Shown here piece by piece: positions 12-12,637 of a stretch of DNA of 25,656 nt (position 1 is the first letter of the stretch; each line of letters starts with the position of its first letter). The DNA is taken from contig JAOTWC010000001.1 in assembly GCA_029863105.1 (NCBI GenBank), positions 1 to 25,656 on the forward strand, given 5' to 3'. Origin of the DNA: Gemmatimonadota bacterium. GTDB taxonomy: Bacteria; Gemmatimonadota; Gemmatimonadetes; Palauibacterales; Palauibacteraceae. The translations under genes were made by a program, and so were the position numbers. The notes under the pieces were generated by a model. The model was given only the letters and a program-made list of their open reading frames with translations. It searched no databases and was not told the DNA's origin.

Positions 12-950
12 GTGGGCATTGCGGAAGGGTGCATACGGATTCCGCTCCCCGATCCGTTTGTTCCGGGTGTTACGTGCGTCTTCGTGATGGGTCCCGAAGA
101 GTCCCCGTGGCTGCTGGACACGGGGGCCGACACGCCGGAGTGCGAAGCCGCGTTGCGCGACAAACTCTCGGCGGCTGGTTTCGTACTGGAATCGATGCCG
201 GTCGTCCTGTCGCACACCCACCTGGACCATGCCGGCGGCCTGCTGAGATATCGACCCCCGCAGCTCACGGTTCATGCCCGCGCAATCGAGGAGATGCGAG
301 CAGTCCGCCCGCGGTCCAGCCGTGGCCCCGAAGCCCTGCGGCGCATGGGAGTACCGGACACCGAAATCGGCGCTCTGGCTCCGGCCGGCGAGCCCGTCCA
401 CGGAACACCGTTCGCAGACCTCCCGGTCGATCGAACGCTGACGGGGGAGGCTGGAAGACTGCCGGCGCCCGAGGGTTGGGAATGGTTGTTGGCGGAGGGA
501 CACGCCCCCGGACATCTCCTGCTGTTCGACACGGTAACGCGGACGCTGCTTGCCGGTGATCAATTCCTGTTCAAGTGGAAGACGCCGCTGATCGTTTCCG
601 ACCCCGACTTCGACAGCCTTGGCGCGTACGTGGCTTCGATCCGCGCGGCCCGAGAAAGGGAGCCCGCCCGGATCTGCTCGAGTCACATGGAGACGATGCA
701 CAACCCGGGCGCATGGCTGAATGAGACCGAAGCGTCGATCAACCGCCGGCTCGAGCGCATTGCCGGCGCGGTGGCAGGCGGCGGGCAGACGGCCCACGAG
801 GTACTCGGGACCCTGTACCCGCAGGCGCGCGAGGGTCCGTTGCGCATCGTGTTCCTGCGGGAGACGCTGGCGATGATGCGGCACCTGGCGGCGAGAGGCG
901 AACTCGTTCGTGCCGATCGAGCAGGCGTCGAAGAGTTCGCGACCGCCTGA
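12..950 (+). CDS. MBL-fold metallo-hydrolase (may extend 5' of the window)
   Basis: Metallo-beta-lactamase motifs LLDTG, SHTHLDH (HxHxDH), GHAPGH and AGD. The frame is open back to the window edge, so the GTG start at 12 is uncertain. Confidence 0.85.
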   Translation: MGIAEGCIRIPLPDPFVPGVTCVFVMGPEESPWLLDTGADTPECEAALRDKLSAAGFVLESMPVVLSHTHLDHAGGLLRYRPPQLTVHARAIEEMRAVRPRSSRGPEALRRMGVPDTEIGALAPAGEPVHGTPFADLPVDRTLTGEAGRLPAPEGWEWLLAEGHAPGHLLLFDTVTRTLLAGDQFLFKWKTPLIVSDPDFDSLGAYVASIRAAREREPARICSSHMETMHNPGAWLNETEASINRRLERIAGAVAGGGQTAHEVLGTLYPQAREGPLRIVFLRETLAMMRHLAARGELVRADRAGVEEFATA

Positions 951-955
951 TCGGC

Positions 956-2209
956 TCAGTTCACCTGCGCGGTATCTCCTCCATATCGGCGCGCGACGTA
1001 GTCCTCGAGGATCGCGATGAACTGCTCGACGATGTCGCCACCTCTCAGCGTCATGGCCGGTTCACCGTCGACGAACACCGGGGCGATGGGCTCCTCGGAT
1101 GTGCCTGGAAGCGAGATACCGATGTCGGCGTGCCGGGACTCCCCGGGGCCGTTTACCACGCACCCCATCACCGCCACGGAGAGCGACTCGACACCGGGGT
1201 GTGTCGACCGCCATTCGGGCATGCGCTCCCGGAGAAATGTCTGAATGTCGAGCGCCATTTCCTGAAAAAACGTGCTGGTCGTTCTGCCGCAACCCGGGCA
1301 GGCAGTAACCTGCGGCTCGAAGCTGCGAATACCCAGTGACTGCAGGATCTGCCGTGCGACCCTGACCTCTTCCGTTCGGTCGCCGCCCGGCATCGGCGTG
1401 AGCGAGACGCGAATCGTATCCCCGATGCCTTCAAACAGCAGCATCGCCAACCCCGCCGAACTCGCAACCGTCCCTTTGCGACCCATCCCCGCTTCGGTCA
1501 GGCCGAGATGCAGCGGGTAGTCGCACAGCGGTGCCAGTGAGCGATAGACAGCCACGAGATCGCGGACGCCCGACACCTTGGCACTCAGGATGATTCTGTC
1601 GTGAGGCAGGCCAATCCTCTCTGCCGCCCGGGCCGAACGAAGGGCGCTCTCGACCATGGCCGCCATCGTGACCTCATGCGCCTCACGCGGTTTCGTCAGC
1701 GCCGCGTTTTCGTCCATCATGCGGGTGAGCAGGACCTGGTCGAGAGAGCCCCAGTTGACGCCGATTCGAACCGGCTTCCCATGCTCGATCGCACACTCGA
1801 TGATGCGCGCGAAGTTTTCGTCCCAGCGCTTGCTGCCAACGTTGCCCGGGTTGATGCGGTACTTGGCGAGCGCCGCGGCGCAGTCGACGTTGCCCGGCAG
1901 CAGGAGGTGTCCGTTGAAGTGGAAGTCGCCGATGAGCGGCACGGTGACGCCATGGGCGTCCAGCCGGGCGACGATCTCGGGGACGGCACGGGCGGCAGCC
2001 GGTGTATTCACCGTGACCCGAACCAGCTCACTGCCCGCCTCGACCAGCGACAGCACCTGAGCCGTCGTAGCCTCTATGTCCGCCGTGTCCGTGCTCGTCA
2101 TCGACTGGACGACGACCGGATGGTCGCCGCCAATGGGCACATTCCCGACGTAAGCCGTTACCGTCGATCGACGCGCGGGCCTGTTCAACCGGATTTCAGG
2201 GTGGGTCAT
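956..2209 (-). CDS. ispG: (E)-4-hydroxy-3-methylbut-2-enyl-diphosphate synthase (MEP pathway)
   Basis: VQSMT, ADFHF-like [39 protein letters not shown], and 4Fe-4S cysteines CPGCGRT and GCVVNGPGE. Start moved to ATG 2209 (MTHPE), preceded by AGGTGG. Confidence 0.97.
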
Positions 2210-2322
2210 CCTGGTGCCACCTGACGCTCTGACTCGGAAAGCTGTGCTGCTCCGTCCGGACGACCGAAAGTACGGGGCCCTGTGGTCACGTTCCAGCAAA
2301 CGCCAGCCAATACGAGTACCAT

Positions 2323-2356
2323 GCAGAGAGGCCCCGGTTCTCCGGGGCCTCTCTGC
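2323..2356. terminator. Perfect 15-bp GC-rich hairpin (terminator-like, no U-tract)
   Basis: gcagagaggccccgg-ttct-ccggggcctctctgc, about 70 nt downstream of the small ORF stop and upstream of ispG. Confidence 0.55.
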
Positions 2357-2427
2357 TGCCCTCCTGCCGCCGGCTGGTGAGACGGTAGTCGGCTGGCGCG
2401 CGTTACCCGCTTCGCTGTTGAGCGCGC

Positions 2428-2628
2428 TCAGTCGTGTCGGGCATGTTCCTTCTTCAGGTACGCCTTGAACCGGCGCTCGAGACCTCTGCGATCTCGGCGC
2501 ATCTCACGCTCGAACGCCAATCGGTGGGCAAACACCGCATCCTTGAGCCATCGGGTGGTCAGCGCCGGGCGCCAACCGGCGCCTCCCGATCCGACCGTTT
2601 CAACTCCCGGACCTCGAAGCCCAAACAT
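2428..2628 (-). CDS. Small basic hypothetical protein, 66 aa ([66 protein letters not shown])
   Basis: AAGGAGG SD 6 nt before ATG 2628; GC3-biased codons in the distal two thirds; upstream promoter and downstream hairpin. The ORF track starts it at a TTG at 2673. Confidence 0.7.
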
Positions 2629-2821
2629 CTGGTGCCTCCTTAGTCGCGCGCCGCCCGCACTCCGCGTGGACAATCTTTGGGTCCGCCTATGTACCTCCGC
2701 GCCGTCACCGTAACCTCAATCCTGACGGGTCACTAACGACGCGATCAACGTCGCGAACGGTCGAATTCTCCCCACCAATCCCCTCGAAATCCACCAAATT
2801 CGGCCCGTTTTTCCACGCCAA

Positions 2822-2869
2822 CCGCAATATCTTGGGGTACGGACATGATACACCCACCAGATGTTGTGG
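2822..2869. promoter_or_regulatory. Tandem NrdR-box-like operators (2822-2837 and 2854-2869)
   Basis: Minus-strand reads CCACAACATCTGGTGG and CCCCAAGATATTGCGG, 32 bp start to start. The second differs by 1 nt from the box upstream of nrdJ. Confidence 0.75.
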
Positions 2870-2874
2870 GTCAA
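2845..2874 (-). promoter_or_regulatory. Sigma70-type promoter for the small ORF
   Basis: TTGACC (2874-2869), 18-nt spacer, TATCAT (2850-2845); predicted +1 near 2838. Confidence 0.7.
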
Positions 2875-2880
2875 GTACGG

Positions 2881-2910
2881 TGGACCCTTCGTTGCCCCGA
2901 CAGGTATCCT
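2881..2910 (+). promoter_or_regulatory. Possible divergent sigma70 promoter for the NTF2-like gene
   Basis: TGGACC-N18-TATCCT; the -10 lies within the inverted repeat acagg-tat-cctgt. Confidence 0.3.
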
Positions 2911-2966
2911 GTAGCCGGCGACGCGGACGAAGGCGTCGACGGGTCCTTCCAGCAGGAGGTTGTGTG

Positions 2967-3569
2967 ATGCATGGAGTGCCGGGTGTGTGGGTGAGGATGG
3001 GTGGGGTCGGGGCACTGCTCGCGGCCGTGGCGTGTAGCGTGCCGTCCGCCCTGCAGGCGCAGGACGGGGAGGCGGGCGCAGAGGTCGAGGCTTCGGCCCC
3101 GAAAGCGAATCCCGCCGACGTCGAGTCGATCGATGCGATCCTGACGGCCGTGTACACCGTGATATCGGGTGAGGCGGGCGAAGAGCGTGACTGGGATCGG
3201 TTCCGGTCGCTGTTTATTCCCGAGGCCCGGCTGATACCGACAGGGTACAGACCTGACGGAACGCACGCGTACATCGTGTGGTCTCCGGATCAATACATCG
3301 AGGCGGCTGGCGCTCAGCTCGTGGCCAACGGGTTCTTCGAACAGGAAGAACACCGGGTGACAGAGCAGTGGGAGGATATCGCCCATGCGTTCAGCACCTA
3401 CAATTCCTACCGAACCGAGGCGGACATGGAGGCGGGAACCACCTTCATGCGAGGAATCAACAGCTTTCAACTGATGTGGGACGGCGAACGGTGGTGGGTC
3501 GTTTCCATCATGTGGGAGGCCGAGGGCCCCGATCGCCCGTTGACCGAGGGGTATCTCGGCAAGGACTGA
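2967..3569 (+). CDS. Exported hypothetical protein, NTF2-like/DUF4440-like fold
   Basis: AGGAGG at 2954-2959, 7 nt before ATG 2967; signal peptide ending ALQA-Q; SIDAIL..VY..ISG...DWDRFRSLF and RGINSFQL..DGERWW pattern typical of small NTF2-like proteins. Confidence 0.75.
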   Translation: MHGVPGVWVRMGGVGALLAAVACSVPSALQAQDGEAGAEVEASAPKANPADVESIDAILTAVYTVISGEAGEERDWDRFRSLFIPEARLIPTGYRPDGTHAYIVWSPDQYIEAAGAQLVANGFFEQEEHRVTEQWEDIAHAFSTYNSYRTEADMEAGTTFMRGINSFQLMWDGERWWVVSIMWEAEGPDRPLTEGYLGKD

Positions 3570-3600
3570 TCCAGGTGGTCGCAACCGGCGACGCTCGCCC

Positions 3601-4260
3601 TCATGCTCGCAGCAACGCCTGCAGGACACCCAGCACCGCAGCTGCGGCGGCCGCCACGACCAGGGGTCGCCAGGTGGACCTCGTTTCCTTTCTCGCCTCC
3701 GGAATCAACTCGCGGAGGACCATCCAGCCCATCGCGCCGGCGGCGAAGCCGAACCCTGCGGCGAGGTAGTCTCGAAACTGGAGAACGAACAGAAACGCGG
3801 GTACGGCAAGGAGCGGCTGGGGAATGCTGGAGAAGAAGCTCCACGCGCCCGCCTTCCAGACGGAGACGCCTCGCGGGACGAGCACGAGCGAGATCGCCAG
3901 GCCTTCTGGAATGTTGTGGACGGCGATAGCCAGCGAGATGAACAGACCGAGTTCGGCCCCACCGCCGAACGACACTCCGATTCCTACGCCCTCGGCCACG
4001 GAGTGAATCGTCATCACGCCGACGATCAGCAGGCTCTTTCTGGCGTCGGCACCCCGGAGATCTCCCACGCGCACGCCGTCGAACCGACCGAGCAGCCAGC
4101 GGCTGGCCGCGATGAACAGCAGGCCGGCGACCAGGCCGGCGCCGAGCCGGCCGGGACTCTGGTGCCAGCCCTCGTACACGAGCTGGCCCGAGGCGGCCAG
4201 CATGAGGCCAGCCGCGGCAGCGTTTCCGTACCCGAGCCAATAGCGCCCGGGTTTGGGCAC
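3601..4260 (-). CDS. ZIP (GufA/ZupT-like) divalent metal transporter; true start probably near 4338
   Basis: TIHSVAEG and AVHNIPEGLAI ZIP transport-site motifs and multiple TM helices. The frame stays open upstream and encodes another TM helix (see findings). Confidence 0.9.
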   Translation of the reverse strand: MPKPGRYWLGYGNAAAAGLMLAASGQLVYEGWHQSPGRLGAGLVAGLLFIAASRWLLGRFDGVRVGDLRGADARKSLLIVGVMTIHSVAEGVGIGVSFGGGAELGLFISLAIAVHNIPEGLAISLVLVPRGVSVWKAGAWSFFSSIPQPLLAVPAFLFVLQFRDYLAAGFGFAAGAMGWMVLRELIPEARKETRSTWRPLVVAAAAAAVLGVLQALLRA

Positions 4261-4430
4261 CCACAGGAACGGCAGGGCGCCGAGACCGGTCGCGGCTGCC
4301 GTCAGCAGGGCTAACAGGAATACGTAGAGTAGTTCGATCGGGGTGTCCCGAGATCACAGGAGACGGCGTGCGGCCAGCGTCACCGCGTCTGACAGGCAAC
4401 GGAACAGCCGACCATCGAGCCGGCAAGACG

Positions 4431-6248
4431 TCAGGCCAGCAGAGCGTCCAGTTCCTGCCGTGCCTCCGCCTGCACTTCCGCATCTCGCTCGATGTCGCGG
4501 ACCATTTCGGTGAGGACTCTTTCCTCTTCACCCGGAGCAACGGACCCGGCCGCTCTCGCCCGGGCCATCGCCGCCAGCGCATCCAGCAGCCTCTGAACGA
4601 GCCGGTCGCGCATGCGAGAGACTCTGGCGTGCGCTTCCATCCAGGCGGGCTGGGAGGTTTCGTTTCCTGCCTGCCGCTCGAGCACTCCCAAACTCTCGTC
4701 CAGACCCGCCAGGTCCCGGGCCAGGTGGCTCGCTCCACGCAGCAATTCGGTGAACACGCCGTCCGGCTGCAAGTCCGGGGTCACCGCGCGAAGTTCGCGG
4801 GCCATCCGGACGAAGTCAGCAAGCAGACGACGGGCCGCACCCTCTGGCATGTCCGCCAGAGCGGCCCTGGCCACAGTCTCGGCATCGACGGGGAGGGACG
4901 ACGTCGTGTTGGCAGACAGCAGCGCGGGGTCCTGGCGGCGCAGCACGGCCCAGATCACGGTTGCCGCGAACAGCGGCGTGATGAGCAACATGGCGGGTGA
5001 TGCAACGAAACCTGCAGCGAACCCCGTTGCGATGGCAGTTCCGAGTACCGCCCCCATGGTCGGGGACAGCCGCGCTCCGACACGCGCAGGGTGCGTGATG
5101 CGGATCGGGAGGCCAGACTCTCGCAAGCGACGGGCGGCCCGGTCCGCCACGGCTGCCGGCACTCGGGCAAGCGGCAGATCCCCACACAACGCGGCACTGA
5201 CATCGGACTGCGATCGGTCGTCACCCACGATGTCCGACAGCTGGTCGGCTATGTCCTGACGGTGATTCCGGTCGTCACCGCGTTCGAGGAACAACAGTCG
5301 TTCATTGGCCGGCCGACGGTCGTGTGATCCTGGTCCCAGGCAAGAGCCGCATAGTCCAAGGCCGAATGGATCGGCGGCACCGCACAACAGGCAGACGCGT
5401 CGGCCCGCAGAACTGAGGAAGCCGGATGAGACGTCACCACCCGATTCCAGCACTTCTGACAGAGTACCGGCCGTGGGAAACCGCTGTCCCGGATCTTCAC
5501 GCGTCAGGGTCGCGGTTACGTCGTCCAGCCACGCCGGGATATCCGGGCACTGTGATCGTGGCCGAAAGCCCACCGGTGATGGACTCGGCGGCAGGTGAGC
5601 CGACTTCTGGTTGGGCAGCATTCCCGTCAACGCGAAGTACAGGGTAGTTCCCAGACCATACAGATCCGACCTCGCATCTCCGCGTTCACCGGCCAGGATC
5701 TCGGGAGCCGTGTACGCGATCGTGCCCACCAGGCCGCCGGTCCGGGTCACCGTGCTCATGTCCGTTACGCGGGCCGATCCGAAGTCCGCCAGTCGCGCTC
5801 TGCCGTTCCCGCCGAGGAGCACGTTCTGTGGCTTCACGTCACGATGCAGCACGCCCATCGCATGGGCAGCCTGGAGTGCCGCCGAGATATCCAGGCCGAT
5901 CCGAACGGTTCCGTCTGCCGTCAAGCGTCCCTGGTGAGCTACGCGTCGGGCCAGGTCGGGCCCGTCAACGAATTCCATCACGAGGAATGTCCGTCCGTCC
6001 CGGTCGACGAAATCATGAAGCTGGACGACGTTCGGGTGTGAGAGACCGCGGGCTACGAGCGCCTCCCTGCGCATTCTCTCTTTGGCAACTGCCTCGGCGG
6101 TGGGGGGCGGCACAAGCAGCTTGATGGCTACCGGCGAATCGAGCGTCAGGTCCCTCGCCCGATACACGACGGAGTAACCGCCACGGCCAATCTCTTCCTC
6201 GATTCGGTACCGGTCAGCGAGGACGTGGTCCGCCGCCAGGTGGGTCAC
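4431..6248 (-). CDS. Hanks-type Ser/Thr protein kinase with Cys4 motif, two TM segments and a helical C-terminus
   Basis: IGRGGYSVVY Gly loop, VAIK, HRDVKPQN, DFG, GTIAYTAPE and DLYGLG; CLLC...CGSC at 5340-5393; hydrophobic hairpin near residues 400-437. Confidence 0.93.
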   Translation of the reverse strand: MTHLAADHVLADRYRIEEEIGRGGYSVVYRARDLTLDSPVAIKLLVPPPTAEAVAKERMRREALVARGLSHPNVVQLHDFVDRDGRTFLVMEFVDGPDLARRVAHQGRLTADGTVRIGLDISAALQAAHAMGVLHRDVKPQNVLLGGNGRARLADFGSARVTDMSTVTRTGGLVGTIAYTAPEILAGERGDARSDLYGLGTTLYFALTGMLPNQKSAHLPPSPSPVGFRPRSQCPDIPAWLDDVTATLTREDPGQRFPTAGTLSEVLESGGDVSSGFLSSAGRRVCLLCGAADPFGLGLCGSCLGPGSHDRRPANERLLFLERGDDRNHRQDIADQLSDIVGDDRSQSDVSAALCGDLPLARVPAAVADRAARRLRESGLPIRITHPARVGARLSPTMGAVLGTAIATGFAAGFVASPAMLLITPLFAATVIWAVLRRQDPALLSANTTSSLPVDAETVARAALADMPEGAARRLLADFVRMARELRAVTPDLQPDGVFTELLRGASHLARDLAGLDESLGVLERQAGNETSQPAWMEAHARVSRMRDRLVQRLLDALAAMARARAAGSVAPGEEERVLTEMVRDIERDAEVQAEARQELDALLA

Positions 6249-9817: not shown

Positions 9818-12361
9818 TCAACCGCACTCGCTGTACCCGCAGGCGTGGCATTTCACGCAACCCTCGGCGAACTCGAGTCCGGAACCGCAATCCGGACAGG
9901 TACCGATAAACGTAAGCGCCGCCTGCTCTTCGAACCGGTGGATGACCGGTTTGTGGGCGGTCTGGGTGCCACCGTTGGTGACCTTCGCGGCACCGGGGTC
10001 CGGGATCGGGAGCGACTGCTGGATCCCTTCCTTTTCCTCGAGATGCCTCTCGATGACCTGGGCGATCGCATCCGGGCTGGACAGAACCTTGTTGGGGCCC
10101 ATGCCCACGGCGCGGTCCGAACTGATCCCGCGCAGCTGCTTGTGAATCGCGCGGAGTGAGATTCCGCTCCTGAGAGCCAGGCTGATCAGTCGGCCGATCG
10201 CCTCGGCATCGGCCATGGCCGGTCCGCCCGCCTTGCCCAGTGCGACGAACGCCTCGAATGGGCGGCCTTCCTGGTCTTCGTTGATCGTCACGTACATGTC
10301 GCCGAGGGGTGAGTCGATCTTGCGGGTGACACCCCGGAGCTCAGCTGGCCGCGATCGGACCAGCGGGGCCTTCATCCGACCGCCCTCCAACGCCGCGATT
10401 GTCTTGCCGCTCTCCTCGAGCTCCGACTCCAGGTCAGCGATGCGGCCAAGCGCCGCGGTGAGGGCTTCCGTCAGCTCCGGGTCCCCTATCTGGTCGAATC
10501 CCGTGGTGCCGCGACCCGCATCTGCTACGACCTTCCGGGCCGTCTTGCCGGTAGAGAGTACCTGCGCGTCACGTGAACCATCCCGGTACACCGTCACTCC
10601 CTTGCACTTCAGCTGGTAGGCGAGCTCGTAGATCCTCCGAACATCTTCTTCCGTCGCGTCGTTCGGAAAGTTGCACGTCTTCGAGATCGCGGAGTCGGTG
10701 TACTGCTGGAAGGCCGCCTGCATCCGGATGTGCTGCTCCGGAGTCACGTCGTGGGCTGTCGTAAACGTCTGCTGCACGTCCTCGGGAACTTCGTCGAAAT
10801 GGATATGGCCCTCGGTGGCGATACGCTCCATCAGCTCGTCGGAGTACCAGCCTTGCTCTCTGGCAAGTTCGACGAACATCGGGTTCACATCGGGCATCAG
10901 GACGCCCGCCTGATTGCGCATGAACGCAACCGCAAACAATGGCTCGATGCCACTGGAGCAACCGGCGATGATGGAAATCGTACCGGTCGGCGCCACGGTC
11001 GTCATGTTGCAGTTGCGGAGGCGCCGCATCGGTCGGATTCGGCTGCCGCCTTTGTCGCGTGCGCAGCTGTCGTCCGGACCCCAAATGGACTTCTCCCACT
11101 CCGGGAACACGCCTCGTTCCCGAGCCAGGCGCTCGGATTCGACCTTGGATTCCTCGTCGACGAACCGCATCAACTCGCGTCCCAGCTCGATCGACCGCGG
11201 CGACCCGTAGGGCTCCCCGAGCTGTACGAGCATATCCGCCCAACCCATCACTCCAAGACCGATGCGCCGGATCCTCTTGGACAGTTCCTCTATCGGAGGT
11301 AGTGGGTACTTGTTCGCATCGATCACATTATCGAGGAAGTGCGTCGCCTTGTGGACGGCCGTGCGGAGCGAGTCCCAGTCGATCTTTCCGTCTTCGACGA
11401 AGGCGCCGACGTTCACCGAACCCAGATTGCACACATCGTACGGGAGCAGCGGTTGTTCACCGCACGGGTTGGTCGCCTCGTAGGAGCCCATGTGCGGTAC
11501 GGGATTGTACCGGTTCGCTTCGTCGATGAAATAGACGCCGGGCTCCCCGTTCCGCCACGCCCCGTGGATGACCTTGCCGAATACTTCGCGCGCATCCAAT
11601 TGACCGACGACTTCTCCACCACGTGGATTATGGAGATCGTACGGTTCATTGCGCTCGATCGCGGCCATGAAATCGTCCGTGATGGCTACGGAGATGTTGA
11701 AGTTCGTGATCTTGTTCTTGTCGGACTTGCAGTCGATGAAGTGCAGGATGTCCGGGTGGTCGACACGGAGGATGCCCATGTTCGCTCCGCGTCGGGTGCC
11801 ACCCTGCTTGACGGCCTCCGTGGAAGCATCGTAAACCTCCATGAAGCTGACCGGTCCGCTCGCGACGCCCATGGTCGACTTTACGACGTCTCCCTGGGGC
11901 CTCAGCCGGGAGAAGCCAAATCCGGTTCCCCCGCCCGACTGGTGAATCAGGGCCATGTCGCGCAGTGTTTCGTAGATACCTTCCAGACTGTCCGGCACGG
12001 GAAGGACGAAGCACGCACTCAGCTGACCGAGAGGACGCCCGGCGTTCATCAGCGTCGGACTGTTGGGCTCGAACTGACCCAGCGCCATCATTTCGTAGAA
12101 CTCGCGCGCGGTGGACTCGATCTGAGCTTCGGTTGCGCCGTACCCGGCGTCCATCCCGGCTATCACACGTGCCACGCGCCAGAACATGTCGGTCGGCGAT
12201 TCGCTCAACTCGAGGTCGTCGTTCTTCTTCAGGTACCGCTTACCGAGAACCGTTACGGCATTATCCGTCAGGCGCGGCTGTGGGAGGTCCGCGGGGGTGG
12301 TTCCGGGATCGACGGAGGTGGGGGCCGCCTCCGACTTCATCGCCGTGTCTGGTGACTGCAT
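9818..12361 (-). CDS. nrdJ: Class II (adenosylcobalamin-dependent) ribonucleoside-diphosphate reductase with fused TSCPD-type domain and Zn ribbon
   Basis: PNSPTLMNAG, LSACFV, GGGTGF, QGGTRRGANM, ATNPCGEQ (thiyl Cys), TTVAPTGTIS, SAISKTCNF and KGVTVYRDGSR; C-terminal CPDC..CVKCHACGYSEC; AGGAG SD. Confidence 0.97.
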   Translation of the reverse strand: MQSPDTAMKSEAAPTSVDPGTTPADLPQPRLTDNAVTVLGKRYLKKNDDLELSESPTDMFWRVARVIAGMDAGYGATEAQIESTAREFYEMMALGQFEPNSPTLMNAGRPLGQLSACFVLPVPDSLEGIYETLRDMALIHQSGGGTGFGFSRLRPQGDVVKSTMGVASGPVSFMEVYDASTEAVKQGGTRRGANMGILRVDHPDILHFIDCKSDKNKITNFNISVAITDDFMAAIERNEPYDLHNPRGGEVVGQLDAREVFGKVIHGAWRNGEPGVYFIDEANRYNPVPHMGSYEATNPCGEQPLLPYDVCNLGSVNVGAFVEDGKIDWDSLRTAVHKATHFLDNVIDANKYPLPPIEELSKRIRRIGLGVMGWADMLVQLGEPYGSPRSIELGRELMRFVDEESKVESERLARERGVFPEWEKSIWGPDDSCARDKGGSRIRPMRRLRNCNMTTVAPTGTISIIAGCSSGIEPLFAVAFMRNQAGVLMPDVNPMFVELAREQGWYSDELMERIATEGHIHFDEVPEDVQQTFTTAHDVTPEQHIRMQAAFQQYTDSAISKTCNFPNDATEEDVRRIYELAYQLKCKGVTVYRDGSRDAQVLSTGKTARKVVADAGRGTTGFDQIGDPELTEALTAALGRIADLESELEESGKTIAALEGGRMKAPLVRSRPAELRGVTRKIDSPLGDMYVTINEDQEGRPFEAFVALGKAGGPAMADAEAIGRLISLALRSGISLRAIHKQLRGISSDRAVGMGPNKVLSSPDAIAQVIERHLEEKEGIQQSLPIPDPGAAKVTNGGTQTAHKPVIHRFEEQAALTFIGTCPDCGSGLEFAEGCVKCHACGYSECG

Positions 12362-12605
12362 GAGGTCCGCACTCCTGAGCTTCTTAGCCTATTCTTCCTG
12401 CCTCTTATGCCTACCCCCGAAGGGGACGAAAATCTAAGGTTGTCCCTTGCACCGCGCCGGATTTCGAAGTGACGGCTCCCCCTCGGGTGCATAACACCCG
12501 CTGAAAACATCCTCGAGATTGCGTGCAATGTTTGTCGAACCGGCGGGACAGGGCCGGATGGTCCGGAGCGGCACCAGCGCCGCCACACACCCCAATATCT
12601 TGGGG
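12362..12605 (-). other. Long (~245 nt) structured 5' leader of nrdJ
   Basis: Stems at 12505-12533, 12484-12500 and 12423-12446, and a C(UUCG)G hairpin at 12414-12425. Confidence 0.4.
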
Positions 12606-12637
12606 CCCGACTAGAATAAAAACCCTATATGTAGTGG
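12590..12637. promoter_or_regulatory. Tandem NrdR boxes (12590-12605 and 12622-12637)
   Basis: Plus-strand CCCCAATATCTTGGGG and ACCCTATATGTAGTGG match the NrdR consensus acaCwAtATaTwGtg, are 32 bp apart, and lie upstream of an RNR gene. Confidence 0.88.

Follow-up and report, generated by a model that had tools for sequence, protein, structure and literature searches.

The 25,656-nucleotide (nt) contig JAOTWC010000001.1 of a Gemmatimonadota bacterium (the whole contig, C13 in our numbering, is the window analysed here) carries on its minus strand, at 2822–2874, what is very probably a functional NrdR-controlled promoter of the sigma-70 type. The gene that it faces encodes a 66-residue (66-aa) orphan protein and no ribonucleotide reductase (RNR), and the leader between promoter and gene contains a phased array of 9-mers that resemble DnaA boxes. 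Judged from the sequence, a canonical paired NrdR operator together with a DnaA-box-like array upstream of an orphan small-protein gene is a new combination. The window belongs to a metagenome-assembled genome of 2.1 Mb (414 contigs, 82% complete, 65% G+C), the DNA of which is present in sediment metagenomes; organisms of this Gemmatimonadota family are mostly uncultured.

NrdR tetramers that carry ATP together with deoxyadenosine triphosphate (dATP) bind two boxes 15–16 bp apart and repress, whereas ATP-only forms do not bind DNA (PMC13584703, PMC12051234, PMC12176259). The two boxes follow a spacing rule, with a linker of 15–16 bp and 31–32 bp from start to start, corresponding to integer helical turns (PMC13584703, PMC12051234). 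An earlier note on this DNA had described the promoter at 2822–2874 as a mirror of the promoter of the RNR gene nrdJ and had proposed it as a hidden member of the NrdR regulon. Direct reading of the minus strand confirmed the layout. The −35 hexamer TTGACC (2869–2874) runs at its CC into NrdR box 1, CCACAACATCTGGTGG (2854–2869), which overlaps the −35 and the spacer and is a perfect match to CCNCNANATNTNGNGG. The −10 hexamer TATCAT (2845–2850) lies within the 16-bp linker between the boxes, and box 2, CCCCAAGATATTGCGG (2822–2837), which matches CCNCNANATNTNGNGG perfectly as well, starts 32 bp after box 1 and covers the stretch from the predicted +1 (about 2838–2836) to +16, the transcription start being placed from the position of the −10. 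The consensus −35 and −10 elements are thus both present, with box 1 over the −35 and spacer and box 2 at the predicted start. The nrdJ promoter, also on the minus strand and identified by direct reading and box searches, shows TTGACC, box 1 CCACTACATATAGGGT at 12637–12622, TATTCT and box 2 CCCCAAGATATTGGGG at 12605–12590. The distal boxes of the two promoters are identical at 15/16 positions, both pairs are spaced 32 bp start to start, and the resemblance claimed in the note is real. Equally correct was its statement that no RNR gene lies downstream of 2822–2874, where the next genes are the 66-aa open reading frame (ORF) and ispG (gcpE).

These sites are rare in the genome. A simple promoter scan of 900–3400 returned TTGACC-18-TATCAT, with 10/12 matches, as the sole sigma-70-like promoter. 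Searching for the distal box on both strands with at most three mismatches gave five matches against 0.33 expected, a number reached by none of 100 shuffles, and all five were sites of the small-gene and nrdJ promoters. Perfect matches to CCNCNANATNTNGNGG numbered three in the whole 2.1-Mb assembly, again all inside these two promoters. Convincing paired boxes at 31–32 bp occur at three places in the genome, namely the small-gene promoter, the nrdJ promoter and a site on contig C135.

The genome also encodes the cognate repressor that such a reading presupposes. Contig C72 contains an nrdR gene that matches the TIGR00244 equivalog with 175.9 bits (cut-off 124.65); its 171-aa product has an intact CxxC...CxxC motif and ATP-cone, and the gene adjoins tatC, a ybgF-like TPR gene and an OmpA-type gene (neighbours named by translation). 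Pfam assigns RNR barrel and TSCPD domains to NrdJ itself (9818–12361, minus strand), which also matches the B12-dependent RNR equivalog NF006417 of NCBIfam. A survey of five genomes, this one and four relatives of which one is complete, turned up no RNR large subunit other than NrdJ and no class III RNR. Since NrdJ is the only RNR found, the extra operator is not owned by an overlooked RNR gene.

The operator is conserved across the family. At orthologous loci, paired boxes 31–32 bp apart were present in 18 of the 19 analysed, 118–225 nt upstream of the small ORF, the one exception being a locus cut by a contig end; the pair is retained in at least 17 genera. Positions C4, A8, T9, T11 and G13 are invariant in both boxes of the 18 loci, the core positions of box 1 included. 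The unspecified box positions are 57–61% conserved, compared with 47% for the linker, in which only the −10-like TA...T stands out (72–83%). Most orthologous promoters have TTGACC or TTGCCC at the position of the −35. A relaxed paired-box pattern found between one and five sites per genome in 31/31 family genomes, and a reversed control pattern found none in the 31. The paired sites precede three kinds of gene in conserved neighbourhoods: nrdJ; the small gene followed by ispG; and a 109-aa orphan gene followed by pyruvate kinase. At 2822–2869, then, two consensus-matching 16-bp boxes at 32-bp spacing (three helical turns) coincide with a cognate NrdR and with conservation among orthologues, which is what defines an NrdR operator at the level of sequence. 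The RNR operon that follows the operators of the classical regulon is missing from this promoter, and that operon is a trait of the classical regulon, not of the operator itself. Comparative genomics supports the proposal of a hidden NrdR regulon member, and every computational check that could have told against it, including box conservation at orthologous loci and the presence of nrdR, left it standing.

We asked what kind of gene the promoter faces. The 66-aa gene (P0001; 2428–2628, minus strand) is preceded by the Shine–Dalgarno sequence AAGGAGG (2635–2641), 6 nt before the ATG at 2628, and is separated from box 2 by a leader of ~193 nt; among orthologous loci with a callable start, 18/19 have a purine-rich Shine–Dalgarno sequence before the chosen start. 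Homologues were detected by tblastn in 20 of the 24 genomes of the same family, and the 16 genomes of the sister family yielded one marginal match (E about 0.009). A phylum-wide profile search of 201 genomes confined the gene to this Gemmatimonadota family. Among 1.84 billion representative proteins the small-protein family comprises 33 clusters, nearly all of 56–142 residues, with two long outliers that match weakly or repetitively. The protein has a variable, glycine-rich N-terminus and a conserved core, with P21, W27, F39, E40, E42, M43, R45 and R47 invariant in the alignment. Within the genus, differences in the gene are distributed over codon positions 1:2:3 as 88:64:345, and this bias indicates that selection acts on the protein. 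The AlphaFold2 model has a disordered head and one long helix (residues 25–65) with a predicted local distance difference test (pLDDT) score above 90 in the helix. No match to P0001 was found in Pfam, NCBIfam, PHROGs, a PDB profile search or the ESM Atlas, and a fold search would be uninformative because the model is a single helix. We conclude from these comparisons that the 66-codon frame is a real coding gene, and that its product is a lineage-specific protein, modelled as mostly one long helix.

The leader upstream of this gene holds the second element of the promoter region. Starting 4 nt after box 2, the aligned leaders contain head-to-tail 9-mers of the form nGTGGAnAA, which recur at about +26, +36/37, +47, +57/58 and +78/79; relatives carry three to six good copies at the corresponding positions, with five at locus L015. 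Counted over the first 110 nt past box 2 in 18 leaders, the strict motif was observed 43 times against 0.19 expected from the genome's own motif frequency, an excess of ~220-fold. Spacings within the arrays cluster at 10–11 nt (24 cases), 19–22 nt (29), 32 nt (3) and 42 nt (2), and the 9-mers therefore share one helix face. In the window the array occupies 2766–2817 of the minus strand in steps of 22, 11 and 10 nt. Its first element, CGTGGAAAA (2817–2809), is the only near-consensus copy here (8/9), and it is followed by the weak elements GGTGGATTT (2795–2787), AGGGGATTG (2784–2776) and TGGGGAGAA (2774–2766). We also tried the repeats as additional NrdR half-sites and rejected this, as a third box 31 bp past box 2 has three mismatches and the equivalent sequence in relatives misfits the box pattern (leader alignment judged by eye).

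Read on the complementary strand, nGTGGAnAA corresponds to the universal DnaA box TTWTNCACA (complement TGTGNAWAA), of which TTGTCCACA is a high-GC variant; the words of the array include the exact TGTGGATAA and the high-GC form TGTGGACAA. The dnaA promoter of the same genome, adjacent to rpmH (L080, contig C288, about 2140–2200), reads TTGACA-c-TGTGGAAAA-N7-TAGAAT, and the perfect DnaA box in its spacer suggests classical dnaA autoregulation. A congener likewise has this DnaA-box word ahead of its dnaA. Nearly every small-gene promoter carries the array, as do the nrdJ promoters of some genera, including genera without the small gene, and several genomes have arrays at both; it is absent from the nrdJ promoter in the window and from the promoters of the 109-aa gene, where a single isolated match occurs in 12. 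On balance, the nGTGGAnAA repeats are probably DnaA sites.

Two further leader elements lie between the array and the gene. A reverse-oriented DnaA-box-like 9-mer, TTGTCCACG (2665–2673, minus strand), is located 45 nt before the start codon; this genome shares it with two of its closest relatives (L006, L007) but not with more distant ones. The block TTGAGG-N6-GGTGACGG (2702–2719, minus strand) is conserved across genera at about 75–90 nt before the start codon; it contains no good sigma-70 promoter and forms no part of a predicted RNA structure. An Rfam scan of the window at gathering thresholds and an E-value scan of contig C135 revealed no riboswitch or known RNA, and RNAalifold predicted no pairs in six genus leaders. 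Elsewhere in the genome, contig C144 (about 2900–2925, minus strand) has the DnaA-box pair TGTGGAGAT-ata-TGTGGATAA beside unusually AT-rich DNA, and contig C175 (about 3170–3195) has the pair TGTGGATTGA-TGTGGATAA beside unusually AT-rich DNA and a tRNA-like gene (read by eye). Both pairs are candidate origin fragments.

These elements can be combined into a model. By analogy with the established mechanism, an NrdR tetramer carrying both ATP and dATP would occupy both boxes and block RNA polymerase. High dATP would then shut the small-gene promoter together with nrdJ, and falling dATP would release NrdR and allow both to be transcribed. A DnaA oligomer on the phased boxes at about +20 to +75 could supply a second input, as a roadblock or a modulator; because the array lies downstream of the start, this input would most likely be repressive. 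Expression of the small gene would in this way report both the state of the deoxyribonucleoside triphosphate (dNTP) pool, through NrdR, and the state of the initiator, through DnaA, as at E. coli nrdAB. Our best guess for the protein is a small helical effector or adaptor that the cell requires once it turns dNTP synthesis on. A role as an effector of a dNTP and replication circuit, made only at an NrdR-sensed low dATP level with permissive DnaA occupancy and acting directly on NrdJ, on DnaA or the replisome, or on some later process, for example envelope precursor synthesis, is a tentative suggestion, to which we would give well under even odds.

The transcript would most likely end at a conserved hairpin, with read-through into ispG possible. 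About 70 nt past the stop codon of the small gene, a terminator-like, GC-rich hairpin with a 15-bp stem and a weak U tract occupies 2323–2356 (minus strand), and a strict terminator scan did not call it. Most relatives have a comparable hairpin after the small gene, its stem sequence changed and in some cases its tail T-rich; conservation of the hairpin with changing stem sequence suggests a monocistronic mRNA of about 0.5 kb. The next gene, ispG/gcpE (956–2209, minus strand; Pfam GcpE, 8e-115), is the possible read-through target. A search of the assembled contigs of two RNA libraries found, in an estuary metatranscriptome, an exact 163-nt contig over 2376–2538, which spans the 3′ half of the small gene but does not reach ispG. 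This contig is a weak hint compatible with expression.

A third paired-box promoter, which like the array had escaped the note, lies on another contig. On contig C135 (L002), at 1998–2048, TTGACC is fused to box 1 and a second box follows 31 bp on. Downstream come the 109-aa orphan gene (P0002, 2219–2548), a hairpin and the pyruvate kinase gene pyk (2739–3905). This arrangement is conserved in the family; one genus has pyk immediately after the operator, with no 109-aa gene between them. P0002 gave a confident structure model (pLDDT 81.6), for which a comparison with the PDB returned no match at E ≤0.001 and a comparison with the AlphaFold DB returned only weak matches (template modelling score about 0.5), some labelled tail assembly chaperone. 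We considered whether pyruvate kinase stands in for a missing nucleoside-diphosphate kinase and rejected this, as ndk is present in 31/31 family genomes.

Paired boxes and their genes vary further among relatives. Two species of one genus (g12) have an extra paired-box promoter before a CapD/WbpM-like polysaccharide gene (Polysacc_synt_2; L065 1983–2030, L064 1997–2044). The complete genome G022 has no small gene; there, a single NrdR/DnaA-boxed promoter precedes nrdJ, ispG, the 109-aa gene and pyk, all arranged head to tail in one orientation (L089, G022:C1:1450568-1454788). Just past the nrdJ stop in this genome there is a lone degenerate NrdR-like box, followed by GTGGAC, possibly a relic of the small-gene promoter. 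The nrdJ gene itself is irregular at two loci. In G018 (L057 9959–13786) an interruption of about 1.3 kb near residue 300, conceivably an intein or some other insertion, splits its matches, and in G019 (L054 15823–18316) they overlap by about 28 residues near 430–450, which suggests a frameshift or a duplicated segment.

Several observations weigh against a small-gene promoter under joint NrdR and DnaA control. The array in the window is itself degenerate, with one near-consensus box and three weak ones, and DnaA-box clusters beside dnaA were not seen in three other genera. P0001 has no detectable relatives of known function, and the G+C content at third codon positions (GC3) of its gene, 0.66, is below the 0.79 of neighbouring genes. 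In more distant genera the −35 is shifted relative to box 1. The metatranscriptome contig could be DNA carry-over. Finally, the hairpin lacks a clear U tract, and ispG may therefore belong to the transcription unit. Related to this last point, a rival reading makes ispG the real target, with the small ORF a passenger, transcription reading through past the hairpin, and NrdR and DnaA tuning isoprenoid-precursor synthesis. Such a role is conceivable, though we lean against it, and it is compatible with a promoter that serves the small gene. Wherever a locus is long enough to tell, ispG comes next downstream in the same orientation, no consensus promoter was found in the 218-nt spacer between the small gene and ispG, and in G022, in the absence of the small gene, ispG directly follows the NrdR-boxed nrdJ. 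Against this, a strong hairpin is kept after the small gene while its stem changes, purifying selection acts on the small protein, ispG in G017 has no NrdR boxes and lies away from nrdJ, and, as a weak point, the exact metatranscriptome contig covers the small gene and not ispG.

Other readings concern the repeats or the boxes themselves. We doubt that the repeats bind another direct-repeat factor, such as a response regulator of the OmpR/PhoB type, or serve, within the RNA leader, as motifs that proteins bind in single-stranded form. Response-regulator sites typically also consist of direct repeats at 10–11 bp, and the lack of consensus in all but the first element of the window, like the missing clusters by dnaA, would suit such a factor; so would a narrow pattern search of G022, which gave no origin-like cluster. 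The 9-mer nevertheless equals the universal DnaA box and its high-GC variant, and the same word stands in the dnaA promoter spacer of this genome and just upstream of the congener's dnaA. The RNA version is further opposed by the geometry of direct repeats, which cannot pair mutually, and by the lack of a predicted consensus RNA structure; CsrA-type GGA motifs were rejected on the latter ground and because no CsrA gene was found in five genomes. That the array marks a replication origin, or a site like datA or DARS that titrates or inactivates DnaA, and not an element of transcriptional control, is very unlikely. Boxes arranged head to tail at 11- and 22-bp steps do resemble the DnaA-oligomerization arrays of origins, and no DnaA-box cluster was found adjoining dnaA in five genomes. 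However, the site has no AT-rich unwinding element, the intergenic 40-mer of lowest GC content (45% GC) being the NrdR operator itself; the array lies inside a transcribed leader and several genomes have arrays at two promoters; genes do not diverge from it; and the box pairs on C144 and C175 beside AT-rich DNA are more origin-like. GC skew sampled every 200 kb in complete G022 was too noisy to place the origin, and the narrow array pattern, searched in two genomes, matched only in the nrdJ leader and in coding regions. Least probable of all is that the two boxes are a functionless relic left by duplication of the nrdJ promoter, or that they control the divergent gene at 2967–3569. The 15/16 identity of the two distal boxes and the position of the pair within a divergent intergenic region would fit these ideas. 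A relic is at odds with promoters that are unlike outside their functional elements and with a pair kept in at least 17 genera in which the contact positions alone are invariant; service to the divergent gene is at odds with a −35 and −10 that face the small ORF and with G023, where the 3′ end of nrdJ lies upstream of the boxes and there is no divergent gene.

That divergent gene (2967–3569, plus strand) begins 92 nt beyond the −35 and encodes a 200-aa secreted or lipoprotein-like protein with a signal-peptide-like start (GC3 0.77). Its product has no family match, and in relatives the gene does not always accompany the boxes. Judged by GC3, it is probably a real gene, as is a ZupT-like transporter gene at 3601–4260 (minus strand; its match to ZupT is weak, scoring under the family cut-off), whereas the listed long ORFs at 2871–3629 and 3467–4738 (both minus strand) are probably not genes.

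We conclude that the promoter at 2822–2874 very probably places a non-RNR gene under NrdR, a protein currently described as an RNR-specific repressor, and that full paired operators occur family-wide at two non-RNR promoters. If the small protein is an effector, then its gene, the second orphan gene and pyruvate kinase would jointly amount to a multi-gene non-RNR regulon that NrdR runs through its full tetramer-on-two-boxes mechanism. The case bears on what else cells switch on when dNTPs run low, for which the 66-aa and 109-aa orphan proteins and pyruvate kinase are candidates; the small protein is in addition a candidate link between the supply of DNA precursors and replication. In the literature that we read, paired boxes are described for RNR operons alone, and we found there no link of NrdR to Gemmatimonadota, or to ispG or pyk as a regulon target. 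In E. coli and Pseudomonas aeruginosa, box pairs at integer turns are found only at RNR operons (bioRxiv 10.1101/2025.03.28.645925; see also PMC4409342); the non-RNR candidates topA and dnaA have single boxes, and boxes outside RNR operons were treated as likely false positives in that regulon study (bioRxiv 10.1101/2025.03.28.645925). Reconstructions in Proteobacteria gave small NrdR regulons, with a mean of 3.2 genes, for deoxyribonucleotide biosynthesis (PMC5343134).

The operator described here has the same build as those of Streptomyces coelicolor nrdRJ and nrdAB, E. coli nrdAB, nrdHIEF and nrdDG, and P. aeruginosa nrdJab, that is, two partially palindromic 16-bp boxes with a 15–16-bp linker, and it shares with these RNR-operon operators a cognate repressor with Zn-ribbon and ATP-cone; the overlap with the core promoter is in our case a predicted one. 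It differs in that the downstream gene is neither an RNR gene nor a known RNR accessory gene and, unlike in E. coli and P. aeruginosa, a full box pair at a non-RNR gene is conserved across a bacterial family. At E. coli nrdAB, too, DnaA-type and NrdR boxes are combined in one promoter, those for DnaA being predicted in our case. There, however, the DnaA boxes precede the promoter and the genes encode RNR, whereas here four to six phased boxes follow the predicted start and the gene encodes an orphan small protein. A second comparison is with Sda of Bacillus subtilis, a very small helical checkpoint protein; DnaA controls the sda promoter, and transcription there depends on clusters of DnaA boxes and on the state of replication. 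The analogy is functional only, with no similarity in sequence or fold; Sda folds as a helical hairpin and inhibits a kinase of sporulation, and NrdR is not involved at sda. Among eukaryotes, Sml1, Spd1 and Dif1 are small, partly disordered RNR-binding regulators expressed in step with dNTP demand. They act on class Ia RNR, whereas NrdJ, the only RNR found in the organism studied here, belongs to class II, and we detected no homology between them and the small protein. If the protein does prove to be an effector, it would be a bacterial counterpart of Sda or Sml1 in logic, not in ancestry.

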